Source of the DNA: Candidatus Parcubacteria bacterium
GTDB lineage: Bacteria > Patescibacteriota > Minisyncoccia > Phycocordibacterales > UBA918
Length of the DNA: 39,999 bases
Direction: 5' to 3'
Assembly (NCBI GenBank): GCA_021767645.1
Contig: JAASSY010000003.1
Location: 1-39,999 of the forward strand
Shown one piece after another: positions 2,470-39,999 of this stretch (within the stretch, counting starts at the first letter, position 1; each line of letters begins with the position of its first letter). A program made the translations under genes and the position numbers. A model generated the notes under the pieces. The model saw only the letters and a program-made list of their open reading frames with translations, was not told the DNA's origin and searched no databases.

Positions 2470-2540
2470 GCGGGTGTAGTTTAGTGGTAAAACATCTGCC
2501 TTCCAAGCAGAGGTCGGGGGTTCGATTCCTCTCACCCGCA
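2470..2540 (+). tRNA. tRNA-Gly (anticodon TCC), CCA not encoded
   Basis: Acceptor GCGGGTG/CACCCGC, D-arm with TAGTGGTAA, anticodon arm TCTGC-CTTCCAA-GCAGA, T-loop GTTCGATTC. Confidence 0.97.
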
Positions 2541-2780
2541 CACATATGTTTCCGAACAAGCCCTTGGGGGCTTTTTCGTTTGAAACATAGTGTACGGGTG
2601 AAGTACGTGCCCAATGGCACGTACGTGAGGAATCGAAAGACGGAGTCGGTATACAAGACGAGCGGTCGCCGTTTTTTTAGGGTTTGTGTATGAGGTCATT
2701 ACCGCCAAACCTAGGCCGTTTGGTGGGTTTCGTATCACAAACAGAAAAGCCCCCGGCTGAGGGGCTCTCCTGTTTGTGAT
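2541..2780 (+). other. Highly structured tRNA trailer containing an inverted copy of the tRNA 3' end plus further hairpins
   Basis: 2590-2601 and 2627-2637 are reverse complements of 2532-2543 and 2521-2531; hairpins at 2553-2578, 2603-2624 and 2734-2780. Confidence 0.7.
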
Positions 2781-6819: not shown

Positions 6820-7074
6820 AAACAAAAGACCAACCACATTGGTCAGTCTTCTGTCGGGTTCCTCACCTAGCTCTAGGGATGAGCTAGGTTTACGGAACGG
6901 ACTACAAGTAATGAATAACGACTTTGTACTCTAGTTTATATGTATGGTTCCTCAGAAATTTCTAGGAGGGAAATTTCTTCACGGAACGGCCCAAAACAAA
7001 AGACCAACCACATTGGTCAGTCTTCTGTCGGGTTCCTCACCTAGCTCTAGGGATGAGCTAGGTTCACGGAACGG
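6820..7074. repeat. 81-bp direct repeat (6820-6900, 6994-7074; 1 mismatch) enclosing three 44-nt hairpin units (6857-6900, 6946-6989, 7031-7074)
   Basis: Direct alignment of the copies; unit = GGTTCCTCA-[8-bp stem, 7-nt loop]-TTYACGGAACGG. Confidence 0.92.
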
Positions 7075-7099
7075 CCTAAAAATATAGTCGCTACGCTCG

Positions 7100-35719: not shown

Positions 35720-37885
35720 ATGGCTAGGGAATTCCCAATCGAAAAGATGCGTAACTTCGGTATTGTTGCGCACGTGGACGCGGGTAAGACAACAACGTCT
35801 GAGCGCGTACTCTTTTATACCGGTATGAGTCACAAAATTGGCGAGGTACACGACGGTGCCACCGTGACCGACTGGATGGAACAGGAACGTGAGCGCGGTA
35901 TCACTATTACTGCGGCGGCGATTTCGTGTCACTGGACAAAAACGATGGAAGAGGACCGCAAGAACAAGGACCTCATGACAACGTTTAACATCATTGATAC
36001 GCCAGGACACATTGACTTTACTGCTGAAGTAAAACGGTCGATGCGAGTGCTCGACGGAGCGGTAGTTGTGTTTGACGGAGCGGCTGGTGTGGAACCTCAG
36101 ACTGAGACTAACTGGGGCTACGCTGATGAAGCTGGTGTCCCACGACTGTGTTTTGTAAACAAAATGGACAAGCTCGGTGCCGACTACGATGCGTCGATTA
36201 AGTCTATCCACGACCGACTGTCACCAAAGGCAGTACGTATCCAGCTGCCTATTGGCAAGGAAGACACACTATCTGGTGTGGTTGACCTCATTACCATGAA
36301 GGCCTACCGTTTTGCCGGCACGATGGGTATGGACGTGACCGAAGAGGAGATCCCAGCCGATATGCAGGAAGAAGCCGAAAAGTGGCGTGCTGAGCTTATC
36401 GAACAGGTGGTAGCCCACGATGACGACATGATGGAAGCGTACCTTGGTGGTGAAGAGCCAAGTAACGAAGACTTGAAAAAAGTGTTACGAAAAGCAGTAC
36501 TCGCCAACGAAATCTTCCCTGTACTGACTGGTTCTGCCCTGAAAAACATTGGCGTCCAGCTCGTTCTTGACGCAGTGGTAGACTATCTGCCGGCCCCAAC
36601 CGACCTCCCGCCGGTAGAAGGTACCAACCCGAAGACTGAAGAAAGTATCCAACGCCTTCCGTCAGACGATGAGCCATTCTCTGCGCTGGCCTTTAAGCTC
36701 CAGGATGATAAGTTCGTGGGACAGCTAGCCTTCTTCCGGGTGTACTCTGGTACCGTGCAGGCTGGTTCATACATCCTCAACTCTTCAACCGGCAATAAAG
36801 AACGTGTGGGGCGTATTGTGCGCCTGATGGCCGACAAGCGTGAAGAAGTTGATGAAGTACACGCTGGAGAGATTGCCGCGGCAGTAGGTATTAAAGAGGT
36901 AAAAACTTCACACACCCTCTGTGCCGAGAGTGATCCAATTGTACTTGAGCAGATTACCTTCCCGAAACCAGTGGTAGCCGTTCGAGTTGAGCCAAAAACG
37001 AAGAACGACCAGGAGAAGATGAGTACCGCTTTGAAGCGATTGGCTGATGAAGACCCAACCTTCACTGTTTCAACTGACGAGGAAACCCTCGAGACCATTA
37101 TTGCTGGTATGGGTGAGCTTCACCTCGACATTATTGTCGACCGCATGAAACGTGAGTTTGGTGTAGAAGCCAACATCGGTGCACCACAGGTGGCGTACCG
37201 TGAGACAATTCAGCGCGAAGCTGAAGCAGAGCACAAGTACGTCAAGCAGTCTGGTGGTCGTGGTCAGTACGGACACGTGAAAATCCGCATCAAACCAATG
37301 GAAGAGTTGGCGACCGATGCAGACGGCGAAGATGTAAAAGTAGCGAAAAACGTCACCCGCGAAGATCACTTCGAGTTCATCGACAACATCAAGGGTGGTG
37401 TGATTCCAGGTGAATTTATCCCAGCGGTTATGAAGGGGGCAAAAGAAGCTATGAGCCGTGGGTTTGTCGCCGGTTACCGCATGGAAGATATTTCGGTAGA
37501 ACTGTTTGACGGTTCTTACCACGACGTCGACTCGAGTGAAGTAGCTTTCCGTCTAGCAGCGATTAACGCCTTTAAAGACGCTGCCGCAAAAGCTGGTCCA
37601 GTTATCTTGGAACCGATTATGAAAGTAGAAGTTCGGACACCGGAAGAATACATGGGTGATATCAACGGTAACCTCTCCAGTAAGCGTGGTCAGGTAGAAG
37701 GTACCGAAGAAATGGGCGGTAAGACTATCGTCCACGCCAAAGTACCATTGGCCGAGCTGTTTGGGTACACCAACACGCTCCGTTCGATGACACAAGGCCG
37801 AGCTTCCATGACGATGGAGTTTGATCACTACGACGTGGTGCCGCCAAACGTCGCCGAAGACATTAAGAAGGCAAGGGGCGTCTAA
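35720..37885 (+). CDS. fusA: Elongation factor G
   Basis: [56 protein letters not shown]. Confidence 0.99.
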
Positions 37886-38160
37886 GGGTCTTTAGAGAAA
37901 GTGACCACTTTCGGCTCTTAGATGAGACGGAGCGATGTTTTCTGCTCGTTACTAGAGCAGAAAACCAGCGAGTCGGGTGAGACAGCCTGAGAGGCTGTTG
38001 CAAGAGGTTGCCTGCGATTTTGCAGGATGAAAAATAGCAACAACCTGTACTGCTTATGTAAGAAGAACAAGTACTTAGTAAAATGCCGCGCCAGCGGCTA
38101 TTTTACTTAGAAACCAGTGGGTCAAGGGTCTGGAAAGCAGTGGAGTTTGGTTTCTGTGAA
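37879..38160 (+). other. Hairpin-dense non-coding element after fusA
   Basis: Successive stems CGTCTAAGGGTC/GGCTCTTAGATG, GTTTTCTGCTC/GAGCAGAAAAC, ACAGCCT/AGGCTGT, CCTGC/GCAGG, AGTAAAAT-GCCGC/GCGGC-ATTTTACT. Confidence 0.6.
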
Positions 38161-38251
38161 AAAATACTCATAAAACGCCTGCGTCAAGTGCATAGGGTTT
38201 CGTGGATAACTCATCGCTGTGTCAAGCCTCTAAGGTAGTAGAATTGAGAGT

Positions 38252-39364
38252 ATGAAATATATTGCATACAATCTACCCACCACATTACTCGTATTCGCAG
38301 CGATACTTTTTACTAGCACATTCTTTTTTTTAGTAGGCACAACACCAGCTGTAGCAGCTCCGTCAGACTATCCTACAGAACTCACTGGCTATATATGGGC
38401 TGGTACTCAAGATGCTGCTGATGGTACTGCGCAAGGTATTGGCTGGATCTCACTTAACTGTGAAAACGAATCGCCGTCTTGTCCAGTTGACTACGGAGTG
38501 GAGATTACCGACGGTGGTTCTGACGTTAATGGCTACCTACTACAAGGCGAAGCGTGGGCAGGCGGAGCAACCAGTTCTATCGGCTGGGTCACCTTTGAAC
38601 CTAGCGACTGTCCAGCTCAAGACCCGACTGATTGTCGAGCTCGGTTAAATCCAGTTACACTAGAGTTCACAGGTTGGGCTCGTGCTTGTTCAGTATATGT
38701 AAGTGGCTGTTCTGGTGCTCTTAAGTCAAATGCAGATAAGTTAGCTGATTGGGACGGCTGGATTTCACTAAATAGTGCAAATCACAGCGGTGCTATCTCA
38801 TACGGAGTAGCGATAAATGGTGCTGGAACAAATTTTGATCCAGCCAGTTGGGCGTGGGGTTCAAATGTCCTGGGACAAGTAGGTTCATGGGGTATGGCAG
38901 GTCTACGTAGTCGAGGCGGTCCTGGTGACCCGGATGATGGTCTGGCTTGTGTGGCAGAGCAAGGTACGACGTATGAGTGTATTGGTAATATATCTTCTTC
39001 AACAACAGTGTATCCATCCTGTTATACTGAGACAGATTCAATTGACTGCACAAGTAGTGGTGATGTGTGCAACCCAAGCACCGGTCAATGCGTTGCCAGC
39101 TTCACTGCTTCCGGAACGATCGAGGTATCACCGTCAATCGCACGGCGCGGGAGTGACGTAGAGGTTACTTGGAGCGGTGTTACCGGAGCCGGAGCCAGTT
39201 GTGAGGTTGCTGTTTCTGACGGCGGCTCGATTCCGATTGCAGCAGCAGACGGTTCAGACACGTACACCATTAACGCCAACATTACTACGTTCACGATTGA
39301 GTGTAATGGTATGCCGGGTGACAGTGTGACGGTCGAGGCCATCGGTACCTCATTTGAGTCCTAA
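38252..39364 (+). CDS. Secreted Cys/Trp/Gly-rich surface protein with internal G.AW...IGWI repeats and C-terminal Ig-like domain
   Basis: Signal peptide (PAVA-A); GYIW..IGWISLN, GEAW..IGWVTF, GWA..GWISLN, SWAWG; paired cysteines. Confidence 0.82.
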   Translation: MKYIAYNLPTTLLVFAAILFTSTFFFLVGTTPAVAAPSDYPTELTGYIWAGTQDAADGTAQGIGWISLNCENESPSCPVDYGVEITDGGSDVNGYLLQGEAWAGGATSSIGWVTFEPSDCPAQDPTDCRARLNPVTLEFTGWARACSVYVSGCSGALKSNADKLADWDGWISLNSANHSGAISYGVAINGAGTNFDPASWAWGSNVLGQVGSWGMAGLRSRGGPGDPDDGLACVAEQGTTYECIGNISSSTTVYPSCYTETDSIDCTSSGDVCNPSTGQCVASFTASGTIEVSPSIARRGSDVEVTWSGVTGAGASCEVAVSDGGSIPIAAADGSDTYTINANITTFTIECNGMPGDSVTVEAIGTSFES

Positions 39365-39816: not shown

Positions 39817-39866
39817 CTGTGTAAAACTGAGTTGTTATATGTCCTGTAAGGTTATACTAACAGTAT

Positions 39867-39999
39867 ATGAAAAATTTATCTTTCCTCATCATCGCCGTTA
39901 CGTTACTCATCGGTCTTGACTACGTCGGCGCGTGGACCGCACCGACAAATAACCCGCCAAACCAAAATGTAGCCGCTCCGGTGCATACTGGCACTGCCA
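39867..39999 (+). CDS. Partial secreted protein running off the window (MKNLSFLIIAVTLLIGLDYVGAWTAPTNNPPNQNVAAPVHTG...)
   Basis: TATACT 8 nt upstream; signal peptide then a W..P...PP..NV.AP motif; open to the window end. Confidence 0.75.
   Translation, partial: MKNLSFLIIAVTLLIGLDYVGAWTAPTNNPPNQNVAAPVHTGTA

Follow-up and report, generated by a model that had tools for sequence, protein, structure and literature searches.

The window analysed here is a stretch of 39,999 nucleotides from a Candidatus Parcubacteria bacterium (GenBank assembly GCA_021767645.1, contig JAASSY010000003.1). It contains the gene for elongation factor G, fusA, and over the stop codon of this gene lies a fold-back structure that we describe as a putative part of a dispersed repeat unit. 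The window is contig C9 of its source genome, which we call G000 (605,227 bases in 43 contigs, 49% G+C, 93.7% complete); other C-numbers are contigs of the same genome and L-numbers are fetched loci. In the naming of the units, X1 is the gene's own end, X' is an antisense arm and X2 is a sense copy of the gene end that stands after the core.

The fusA stop codon and its spacer

The fusA open reading frame (ORF; 35720..37885, on the plus strand like all parts of the two units in the window) carries the full elongation factor G domain set in Pfam (GTP_EFTU, EFG_III, EFG_IV and EFG_C) and ends with the stop codon TAA at 37883-37885. The gene end around this codon, CGTCTAAGGGTC (37879..37890), is the putative copied target X1 and the 5' strand of the fold-back. 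It is paired at all 12 positions, three of them as G-T, with the antisense arm X', GGCTCTTAGATG (37913..37924), around an inner hairpin at 37895..37912 that was recognised by inspection and folding. The arm abuts the core on its 5' side, which is the arm position seen in other units, and the very next bases are AGACGGAG (37925..37932), the 5' box AG-N-CGGAG of what we call a CGGAG-type core, with A37927 as N. After a variable hairpin A (37937..37965), predicted by folding and resembling the type C copies at C10:699, C27:176, C30:64 and C20:613, the 3' box GAG-N'-CGGG follows as GAGTCGGG (37970..37977), where T37973 is N' and the covarying partner of A37927.

Nested behind the 3' box is a domain of a second core kind, type B (37979..38068), identified by pattern match and composed of hp1 (37979-38001), hp2 (38005-38046) and GTAC with hp3 (38047-38068); the type B signature GGTTGCC...CAACCTGTAC was found at 38006-38050. 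Type B is nested in a CGGAG-type core in the same way at L172 and L039. The 3' helix of the CGGAG-type core then follows at 38069..38120 (AAGTACTTAG, a hairpin, CTTAGAAACCAGTGG), and by-eye comparison with the consensus of 27 metagenomic units suggests that it has diverged from GCACTTAG...CTTAGTGACTCGTGAC. The last element is a candidate X2, GTCAAGGGTCT (38121..38131). It repeats the fusA end GTCTAAGGGTCT (37880-37891) weakly, in the sense direction, and does not rise above shuffles. As we read the sequence, the fusA spacer is a composite unit of an arm, a CGGAG-type core, a nested type B domain and a weak X2. An earlier note on this DNA had reported the fold-back over the fusA stop codon and the presence of AGACGGAG next to an arm both here and in a tRNA trailer, and these sequence facts were found to be correct. 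The sense copy of the gene end after the core, the several core types and the nesting of cores go beyond its account.

Folding of the fusA spacer was more stable than in shuffles (z of -3.6), and the predicted minimum free energy fold pairs GACGGAGCGATG with CATCGCTGTGTC (38212-38223) in place of the pairing with GAGTCGGG. The 8-mer AGACGGAG has two matches in the window as compared to 0.97 expected, which is not significant (two or more in 28 of 100 shuffles), and 18 copies genome-wide, most of them within coding sequence. Among 391 long ORFs, 9 have a contiguous stem of at least 12 bp that overlaps the stop codon, as compared to none among 391 shuffled controls. These nine include fusA and are otherwise mostly plain terminators. 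Taken alone, the 12-bp fold-back in the window is thus weak evidence.

A second unit behind tRNA-Gly(TCC)

The window holds a second unit behind tRNA-Gly(TCC) (2470..2541, identified by an Rfam tRNA match and inspection of the tRNA), whose positions 54-73 (2521-2540) are its X1. A terminator-like hairpin at 2558..2573, seen by folding and in the sequence, is the centre of a long palindrome formed by X1 and the trailer on one side and the reverse complement of the trailer and X' on the other. The antisense arm (2582..2637) is made up of the reverse complement of the trailer and acceptor strand (2582-2601), an inserted hairpin (2602-2624) and the complement of the T-stem and T-loop, GTGAGGAATCGAA (2625-2637), which ends in GAA. 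AGACGGAG then follows at 2638-2645. The core is a shortened form of the CGGAG type (2638..2693) with the two boxes fused in AGACGGAGTCGG (2638-2649) and a variable hairpin, and comparison with the full unit on C4 showed that it is without the 3' helix and without X2. Within this core, 37 bases are 89% identical to C4:212-248 and to a third copy, C20:469-505; the copy at C4:222 follows an arm that is an 18/18 complement of the tRNA-Ser 3' end. Folding of the tRNA-Gly trailer was more stable than in shuffles (z of -9.1).

Two small hairpins were noted in or beside this unit. The one that splits the antisense arm, AGTACGTGCCCAATGGCACGTAC (2602-2624), has GTGA on either side, as if it were a separate insertion with a 4-base duplication. 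The other, ATTACCGCCAAACCTAGGCCGTTTGGTGGG (2698-2727), is a member of a different family of small repeats, which also occurs at C29:7147, C30:3968, C36:20153-20182 (minus strand) and C4:5963-5991 (minus strand).

Arms are specific for their own tRNA

The arms were analysed at all 28 tRNA genes of G000 by scoring ungapped antisense matches to the last 24 bases of each tRNA in the region 40-250 bases downstream. The results showed that 14 of the 28 tRNAs have an own-antisense match with a score of at least 8, and nearly all of the arms concerned finish on GAA, which complements T54-C56. Control regions upstream of the tRNAs mostly scored 5-6, with a few up to 14. A score of at least 10 against the own tRNA was reached at 10 of 28 tRNAs, as compared to 25 of 756 mismatched pairs of tRNA and downstream region, and the own tRNA was the best match at 12 of the 14 arm loci. 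The complementarity of the arm to the upstream gene end that the earlier note proposed was hence borne out at these tRNAs.

X2 next to tRNAs starts at T54 in type B units or at C56 in CGGAG-type units and is often perfect. At times it extends through the trailer and the terminator; at C27 and L003 the resulting direct repeats are 50-65 bases long. Tandem units were found at tRNA-Tyr on C22, and a perfect 115-base array follows tRNA-Cys on C10. Units are always co-oriented with the upstream gene, and the terminator usually lies between X1 and X'.

A separate case of repetition was seen at a protein gene (L170; G004:C4:57810-58450, minus strand), where the gene end is present three times, each time followed by an antisense arm and a type-B-like unit, with hp2 stems that differ between the units; the mismatches of the first arm are all G-T on the sense strand.

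Core anatomy and covariation

The units are 100-260 bases long and are built on two kinds of core, the CGGAG type and the three-hairpin type B, with nesting possible. By eye, the 27 metagenomic CGGAG-type units give the consensus X' ending in GAA, AG-N-CGSAG, at least one variable hairpin, GAG-N'-CGGGGTCGCGAGCACTTAG, a hairpin, CTTAGTGACTCGTGAC and X2. Positions N and N' form a Watson-Crick pair in 21 of 25 units defined by a regular expression (C-G in 10, G-C in 7 and A-T in 4), as compared to about 8.6 expected from base composition, and several of the four exceptions resemble false matches of the expression. This covariation means that AGACGGAG is one of three versions of a structural box and not itself a constant core. 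Similarly, the stem that was described as opening with GAC-GGAG and closing on GAG(G)TC is roughly right, except that the covarying partner is really GAGTCGGG and that the boxes are fused in the tRNA trailer.

For type B, 54 units were aligned over hp2 and hp3, and 96.4% of the cells were paired as compared to 78.1% in column shuffles, a value that none of 500 shuffles reached. Double-change cells numbered 139 as compared to 33 in the shuffles, and controls with a slid register paired at 56.6% or less. The six outer pairs of hp2 are preset by the search pattern and are therefore uninformative on covariation.

Several features differ between the strands. Duplexes of fusA arms with their own gene end are more stable on the sense strand at 8 of 10 loci (Wilcoxon p ~0.01), and the folds contain 170 G-U pairs on the sense strand as compared to 106 on the other. 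In our reading of the alignments, the loops of hp1 and hp3 are GNRA-like and closed by U-G on the sense strand only, and the 3' helix of the CGGAG type has a conserved G-T pair. A folded sense-strand form, either RNA or single-stranded DNA, is thus likely. As the core folds on the sense strand, such a single-stranded form probably matters, either for spread or in a secondary role in read-through transcripts.

Distribution and the fusA site in relatives

The type B pattern was found in 20 of 41 genomes, namely G000, 18 of the 24 further members of its genus and 1 of 16 from other families of the order, and a reversed-pattern control gave no match in any of the same 41 genomes. The strict form of the pattern is exact, so diverged relatives would escape it, and with this limit no match was found in 400 other genomes sampled across the phylum. 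Among viral contigs the strict pattern gave no match and the loose pattern gave chance matches only among the 80 loci inspected. Chance matches also dominated when the loose pattern was applied to public genome contigs, where at least eight loci bear hairpins (L047, L058, L072, L076, L092, L097, L106 and L086, the last doubtful). Judged by these patterns, the family is confined to a clade with small genomes (0.5-1.7 Mb) among the genomes searched. A scan of metagenomes with the conserved 3' end of the CGGAG type gave 42 loci, with at least 14 units that have the cognate tRNA 127-493 bases upstream, and a scan for the exact fusA end, which would reveal alleles of the same species, gave no match. 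The element that the earlier note knew from two instances is accordingly present at dozens of loci.

To follow the fusA site, the 3' flanks of fusA were fetched from 30 loci of the genus, in 25 of which the C-terminus could be located; the fusA DNA is 70-79% identical across these loci. A unit stands directly after the gene at 10 of the 25, nine other genomes included, and about 14 have a terminator only. Empty sites in relatives, as the earlier note had suggested to look for, thus exist at the between-species level, and none of them forms a filled/empty pair with near-identical flanks. One and the same fusA site carries different cores in different genomes, being either type B, CGGAG type or nested. 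The arm matches the C-terminal tail of its own gene, and these tails vary (KSE, KND, KSEVEA, RATEDDE and others). At L015 the fold-back pairs at 12 of 12 positions, and L017 has an arm and a sense copy that matches at 22 of 24 positions and covers the stop codon.

This was further supported by duplex energies. At the 10 loci with an element the mean was -22.1 kcal/mol with the own tail as compared to -15.6 kcal/mol with foreign tails, and the own tail ranked first at 4 and within the top six at 9 of these 10 loci. The 15 element-free loci gave no signal (-16.2 vs -16.4 kcal/mol). An ungapped test of the fusA arms with Watson-Crick pairs only gave a weak result, and the window score of 6 equals background. 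With arms specific for the own tRNA and for the own fusA, the earlier proposal holds: the element is dispersed, its cores are conserved, and its arm varies, being complementary to the 3' end of the gene upstream.

The gene after fusA in the window is an ORF of 370 amino acids (38252-39364), which is not tuf; its N-terminus is signal-like, and it matches no Pfam family. In several relatives a similar ORF, rich in glycine and tryptophan, stands downstream of fusA, and others have tuf behind a conserved leader. Since the genes after fusA differ across the relatives, the fusA end looks like a rearrangement hot spot in the genus.

Signs of insertion and scans for enzymes

Of the 55 type B units analysed, 28 have flanking direct repeats that beat all 30 shuffles and are 15 to about 100 bases long. 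One junction is fixed, either at tRNA positions 53-56 or just past the conserved ...GGNGT of fusA, and the other varies, which means that the stretch between them is what appears duplicated. By eye, the fixed junction always follows a G-rich GGNGT(T). Mirror forms were seen at L168, L171 and L198, where the unit stands after a copy of tRNA positions 1-53 and ahead of the intact tRNA. At L178 and L179 the unit lies inside the start of a protein gene, the ribosome-binding site and first codons are duplicated and the intact gene follows. X1, the trailer, the terminator, the reverse complement of the trailer and X' often form one long palindrome, as on C4, at 2521-2637 of the window and in L357, where 29 of 29 positions pair. 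X2 is followed by a trailer and terminator like those of X1 at C27, L003, L195 and L199. The nested cores and the tandem units described above also point to insertion.

The enzyme families scanned with profiles in G000 were RVT_1, Phage_integrase, Y1_Tnp, IS110 DEDD, TnpB, Resolvase and Cas1, and RVT_1 alone was scanned genus-wide. No RVT_1, Y1_Tnp, TnpB or Cas1 match was obtained in G000. The sole IS110-like match was a 152-residue ORF with 19.9 bits at a cut-off of 29, which is probably RuvC, and one tyrosine recombinase and four large serine recombinases were found. Of 61 genomes in the genus, 17 have a reverse transcriptase, and its occurrence does not track the units, as illustrated by G007, which is 99% complete and has five type B copies and no reverse transcriptase. 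Neither the HUH/Y1 transposase nor the reverse transcriptase that the earlier note had suggested to look for as co-distributed with the element occurs in G000.

Proposed origin of the units

Given the anatomy and recurrence of the units, the specificity of their arms for the own gene, the covariation of their cores and their presence or absence between species, we tentatively propose that they are dispersed, modular, non-autonomous duplicative insertions that leave the host gene intact, a reading to which we assign a rough probability of 0.45. With equal reserve, the fold-back over the fusA stop codon may be taken as the left edge of one copy of this modular element. In such a unit X', which is antisense to the last 12-25 bases of the gene, could pair either with X1, giving the fold-back, or with X2, closing the unit. 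Copy-choice synthesis is the hypothetical mechanism that we prefer on the ground of this anatomy. A nascent strand would stall at the hairpin of the gene end or terminator, fold back and copy the peeled-off gene end, thereby producing X'. It would then switch onto a copy of the core elsewhere, and finally re-anneal at the fixed point by means of a few shared bases, so that the gene end is copied again as X2. Such a process would account for the palindrome centred on the terminator, for the end of X' coinciding with the start of X2, for the variable repeat length and for the lack of an enzyme. That the core itself is a protein-free mobile entity which makes the host's replication or repair polymerase fold back at the terminator hairpins of gene ends and switch templates, or a new class of structured RNA whose fold would catalyse or direct its insertion, is a bolder version that we find distinctly unlikely.

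A number of observations weigh against duplicative insertion by this route. Since no filled/empty allele pair with near-identical flanks was found, insertion is inferred from the comparison between species. In the window the duplex between gene end and downstream region has an energy of -16.7 kcal/mol, which ranks 13 of 25 against the fusA ends of other genomes, and X2 amounts to an exact repeat of 8 bases. The repeat stops near the tRNA end at L357, L204, L181 and L047, contrary to the prediction of copy-choice. The type B arm sits within the unit, between hp1 and hp2, and a simple fold-back leaves this position unexplained. With regard to the strand, the whole-unit folding energy showed no significant difference, and hp2 holds a conserved C-A mismatch that reads as a G-U pair on the opposite strand. 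Finally, CGGAG-type arms are often a perfect complement of X1 in units where X2 has decayed, with no mismatch over 15 bases in 8 of 17 units. That the match of X1 and X' is kept while X2 decays looks like selection on their pairing and favours a functional reading; a test of divergence between arm and X2 was not significant overall.

It is this last observation that provides the best argument for regarding each unit as a cis-acting RNA module that serves the host at a gene 3' end. On read-through X' would pair with the gene end, either the T-arm or the stop-codon region, and the folded core together with the X':X2 stem would provide an alternative state. The module would act in termination, insulation, stability, processing or as a check on read-through, and its spread would be secondary. 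The constant co-orientation with the upstream gene and the strong covariation in the cores are in line with such a module, as are the GNRA-type loops with U-G closure on the sense strand only, the G-U pairs that favour the sense strand in the fusA arms and the frequency of stems at stop codons and tRNA ends in G000 (9/391 vs 0/391). However, the terminator mostly lies between X1 and X', which means that X' would be transcribed on read-through only. About 14 of 25 relatives lack the unit at fusA and half of the tRNAs lack one, units also occur at the 5' ends of genes with a duplicated ORF start (L178 and L179), the tandem arrays and nesting look selfish, and the strand test on whole units was not significant. 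We therefore consider the functional module unlikely, while giving it more weight than the other alternatives. The window fold-back could also be a chance or ordinary terminator-like stem, with only the downstream cores as true repeats. The 8-mer count, the duplex rank, the three G-T pairs out of 12 and a Watson-Crick-only score at background would all fit this, but the arm is exactly at the usual arm position 5' of the AG-N-CGGAG box, stop-codon stems of at least 12 bp were absent from the 391 shuffled controls, and nine other genomes have clearer arms at the same place, which makes a chance origin very doubtful.

A different source would be recombinase islands, whose attachment-site ends the units could represent, made by a large serine recombinase or by a tyrosine recombinase acting on a folded single strand, with the short units as mini-islands without cargo that are mobilised in trans. 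The four large serine recombinase genes of G000 (C33:54375-54815, minus; C15:263-703, plus; C38:4915-5349, plus; C12:5508-5945, minus; in ORFs of 441-592 amino acids) speak for it together with the single tyrosine recombinase. Three of the four stand in convergent orientation directly behind tRNA genes (those for His, Glu-ttc and Glu-ctc), 'orphan' units with His- or Glu-type arms occur on other contigs, and the convergent arrangement was also seen at 4 of 9 loci in five near-complete relatives. At L334 a 6-kb stretch with a serine recombinase lies between tRNA-Gln and a CGGAG-type unit with X2. K. P. Williams reportedly described in 2002 a direct repeat from the T-loop as typical for elements that integrate into tRNA genes. 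For the units, the order of half-site, loop, antisense arm, element and half-site is the one left when a folded single strand integrates in the manner of CTX phage. Nevertheless, no serine recombinase match was obtained within up to 9 kb of any of the 43 metagenomic units, three of the four tRNA-adjacent loci in relatives have neither a repeat of the tRNA end nor a unit within about 36 kb, and overlaps of contig ends gave no join of the 'orphan' units to the tRNA-His or tRNA-Glu contigs. L334 is equally explained by an island that landed between the tRNA and a pre-existing unit. Moreover, the recombinase paralogues are just 67% identical, the length of the direct repeat ranges between 15 and about 100 bases, and arms that differ per locus are unexplained by a single recombinase specificity. 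We consider the islands improbable; as a general explanation serine recombinases were rejected, with L334 the one supporting case among 9 loci in relatives and 43 metagenomic units. Remnants of RNA-guided mobile elements, either bridge-RNA IS110/IS1111 or IS200/605 with omega-RNA, would make the arm a target guide, and a variable, flank-complementary segment adjoining a conserved structured scaffold recalls such systems. Their guides are without a direct copy of the target and do not change per locus, and G000 has no Y1 transposase, no TnpB (IscB was not scanned separately), an IS110-like match below threshold only and no Rfam match even under permissive settings, so that this origin is hardly credible.

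Several further candidates were rejected on structural grounds. A retroviral-type primer-binding site does not fit because the arms follow the reverse complement of the gene trailer and not CCA, and G000 has no RVT_1. T-boxes, group I/II introns and bulge-helix-bulge introns do not fit, given an intact tRNA outside the unit and cores of too small a size. Nor is the arm a degenerate tRNA 5' half, as hp1 is on the wrong side. A classical tandem inversion duplication would need a core upstream of X1 too, and hairpin opening of the P-nucleotide type yields no X2.

Implications for streamlined genomes

Tiny, streamlined genomes are not expected to bear dozens of repeats, and in G000 a unit stands at roughly half the tRNA genes and at a core gene of translation. 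The layout of the units illustrates how DNA may be inserted at essential genes that stay whole. If copy-choice by the host polymerase or a folded single strand is true, this bears on how repeats can originate without a transposase and on the design of gene-preserving insertions; if protein-free propagation or a self-inserting RNA is true, genomes that rank among the smallest of bacteria would harbour a novel form of genome parasitism. Both covarying core families are candidates for new RNA-family models. For annotators it is relevant that the units make pseudo-tRNA fragments and long palindromes. They also occur at contig ends and overlaps (C10 and C13 overlap by 63 bases inside a type B unit), and hence probably break assemblies.

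Other repeats were noted in the same genome. Many contigs of G000 end in short repeats, including the window at 39853-39999. A 218-base repeat (C14:5637-5853 and C33:34150-34367, 97% identical) has an inner direct repeat of a 38-base block and a terminator copy, reminiscent of an X-T ... X-T arrangement. A 162-base repeat (C36:19983-20143 and C41:1606-1767, the latter on the minus strand, 88% identical) lies after gene ends and seems structured; it could represent a further family of elements or two copies of a small RNA gene. In the window, the 91-base stretches 6820-6910 and 6994-7084 each have a non-self match in the self-comparison of the genome.

Comparison with known systems

When the whole window was compared with Rfam 15, the tRNA alone passed its gathering score. 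A permissive search of 37800-38300 gave isrK as the best match, with 16.9 bits at a gathering score of 50 and an E-value of 0.27. Our literature search on repeats and small RNAs of the candidate phyla radiation and on T-loop insertions found no such element, and papers outside this search could describe one.

Like miniature inverted-repeat transposable elements (MITEs), REP/BIME, Correia and RUP sequences, the units are short, multi-copy, mostly intergenic, hairpin-rich and non-coding, are located at gene ends, are polymorphic from one relative to the next and probably interrupt assemblies. Unlike MITEs and REP sequences they have no terminal inverted repeats common to the copies, since the outer arms follow the neighbouring gene and only the inner cores are shared. 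They further differ from MITEs in the target duplication, which is of no fixed length (15 to about 100 bases), and in that no parent transposase was found (Y1_Tnp and TnpB absent, IS110-like below threshold, DDE families not scanned). With integrative elements that target tRNA genes they share a direct repeat from the T-loop start to the tRNA 3' end or beyond, an intact tRNA and the formation of arrays. However, the units are only 100-260 bases long, have no integrase (a negative that covers serine recombinases, linkage of tyrosine recombinases having been looked at via the single G000 copy only), carry an extra antisense copy of the tRNA end and place the same cores at the ends and starts of protein genes.

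CTX attP and its XerCD recombination may be said to resemble the units in their hairpin of sense and antisense target and in the order of site, loop, antisense arm, element and site, and integron attC in being structured, gene-specific sites at gene 3' ends. Both differ from the units in that here the arms follow many different targets and that G000 has one tyrosine recombinase. Tandem inversion duplications and snap-back insertions show the same succession of sense, palindrome, antisense, junction and sense, with turn-around at a terminator hairpin and variable length, whereas in the units the second junction is always with a conserved structured core, over tens of bases and in dozens of recurrences. 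Archaeal tRNA introns, split tRNAs and the guide pairing of group I/II introns likewise have an insert, at a defined tRNA position, that is partly complementary to the exon or tRNA portion beside it, but here the intact tRNA lies outside the unit, no splicing is needed, no bulge-helix-bulge was seen by eye, no Rfam intron or ribozyme matched and the cores are smaller than a group I or group II catalytic core. Taken together, the succession of gene end, inverted copy, core and direct copy matches none of the described elements that we found, and the units would appear to be a miniature, non-autonomous kind of repeat that falls outside the definitions of both MITEs and tRNA-targeting integrative elements.

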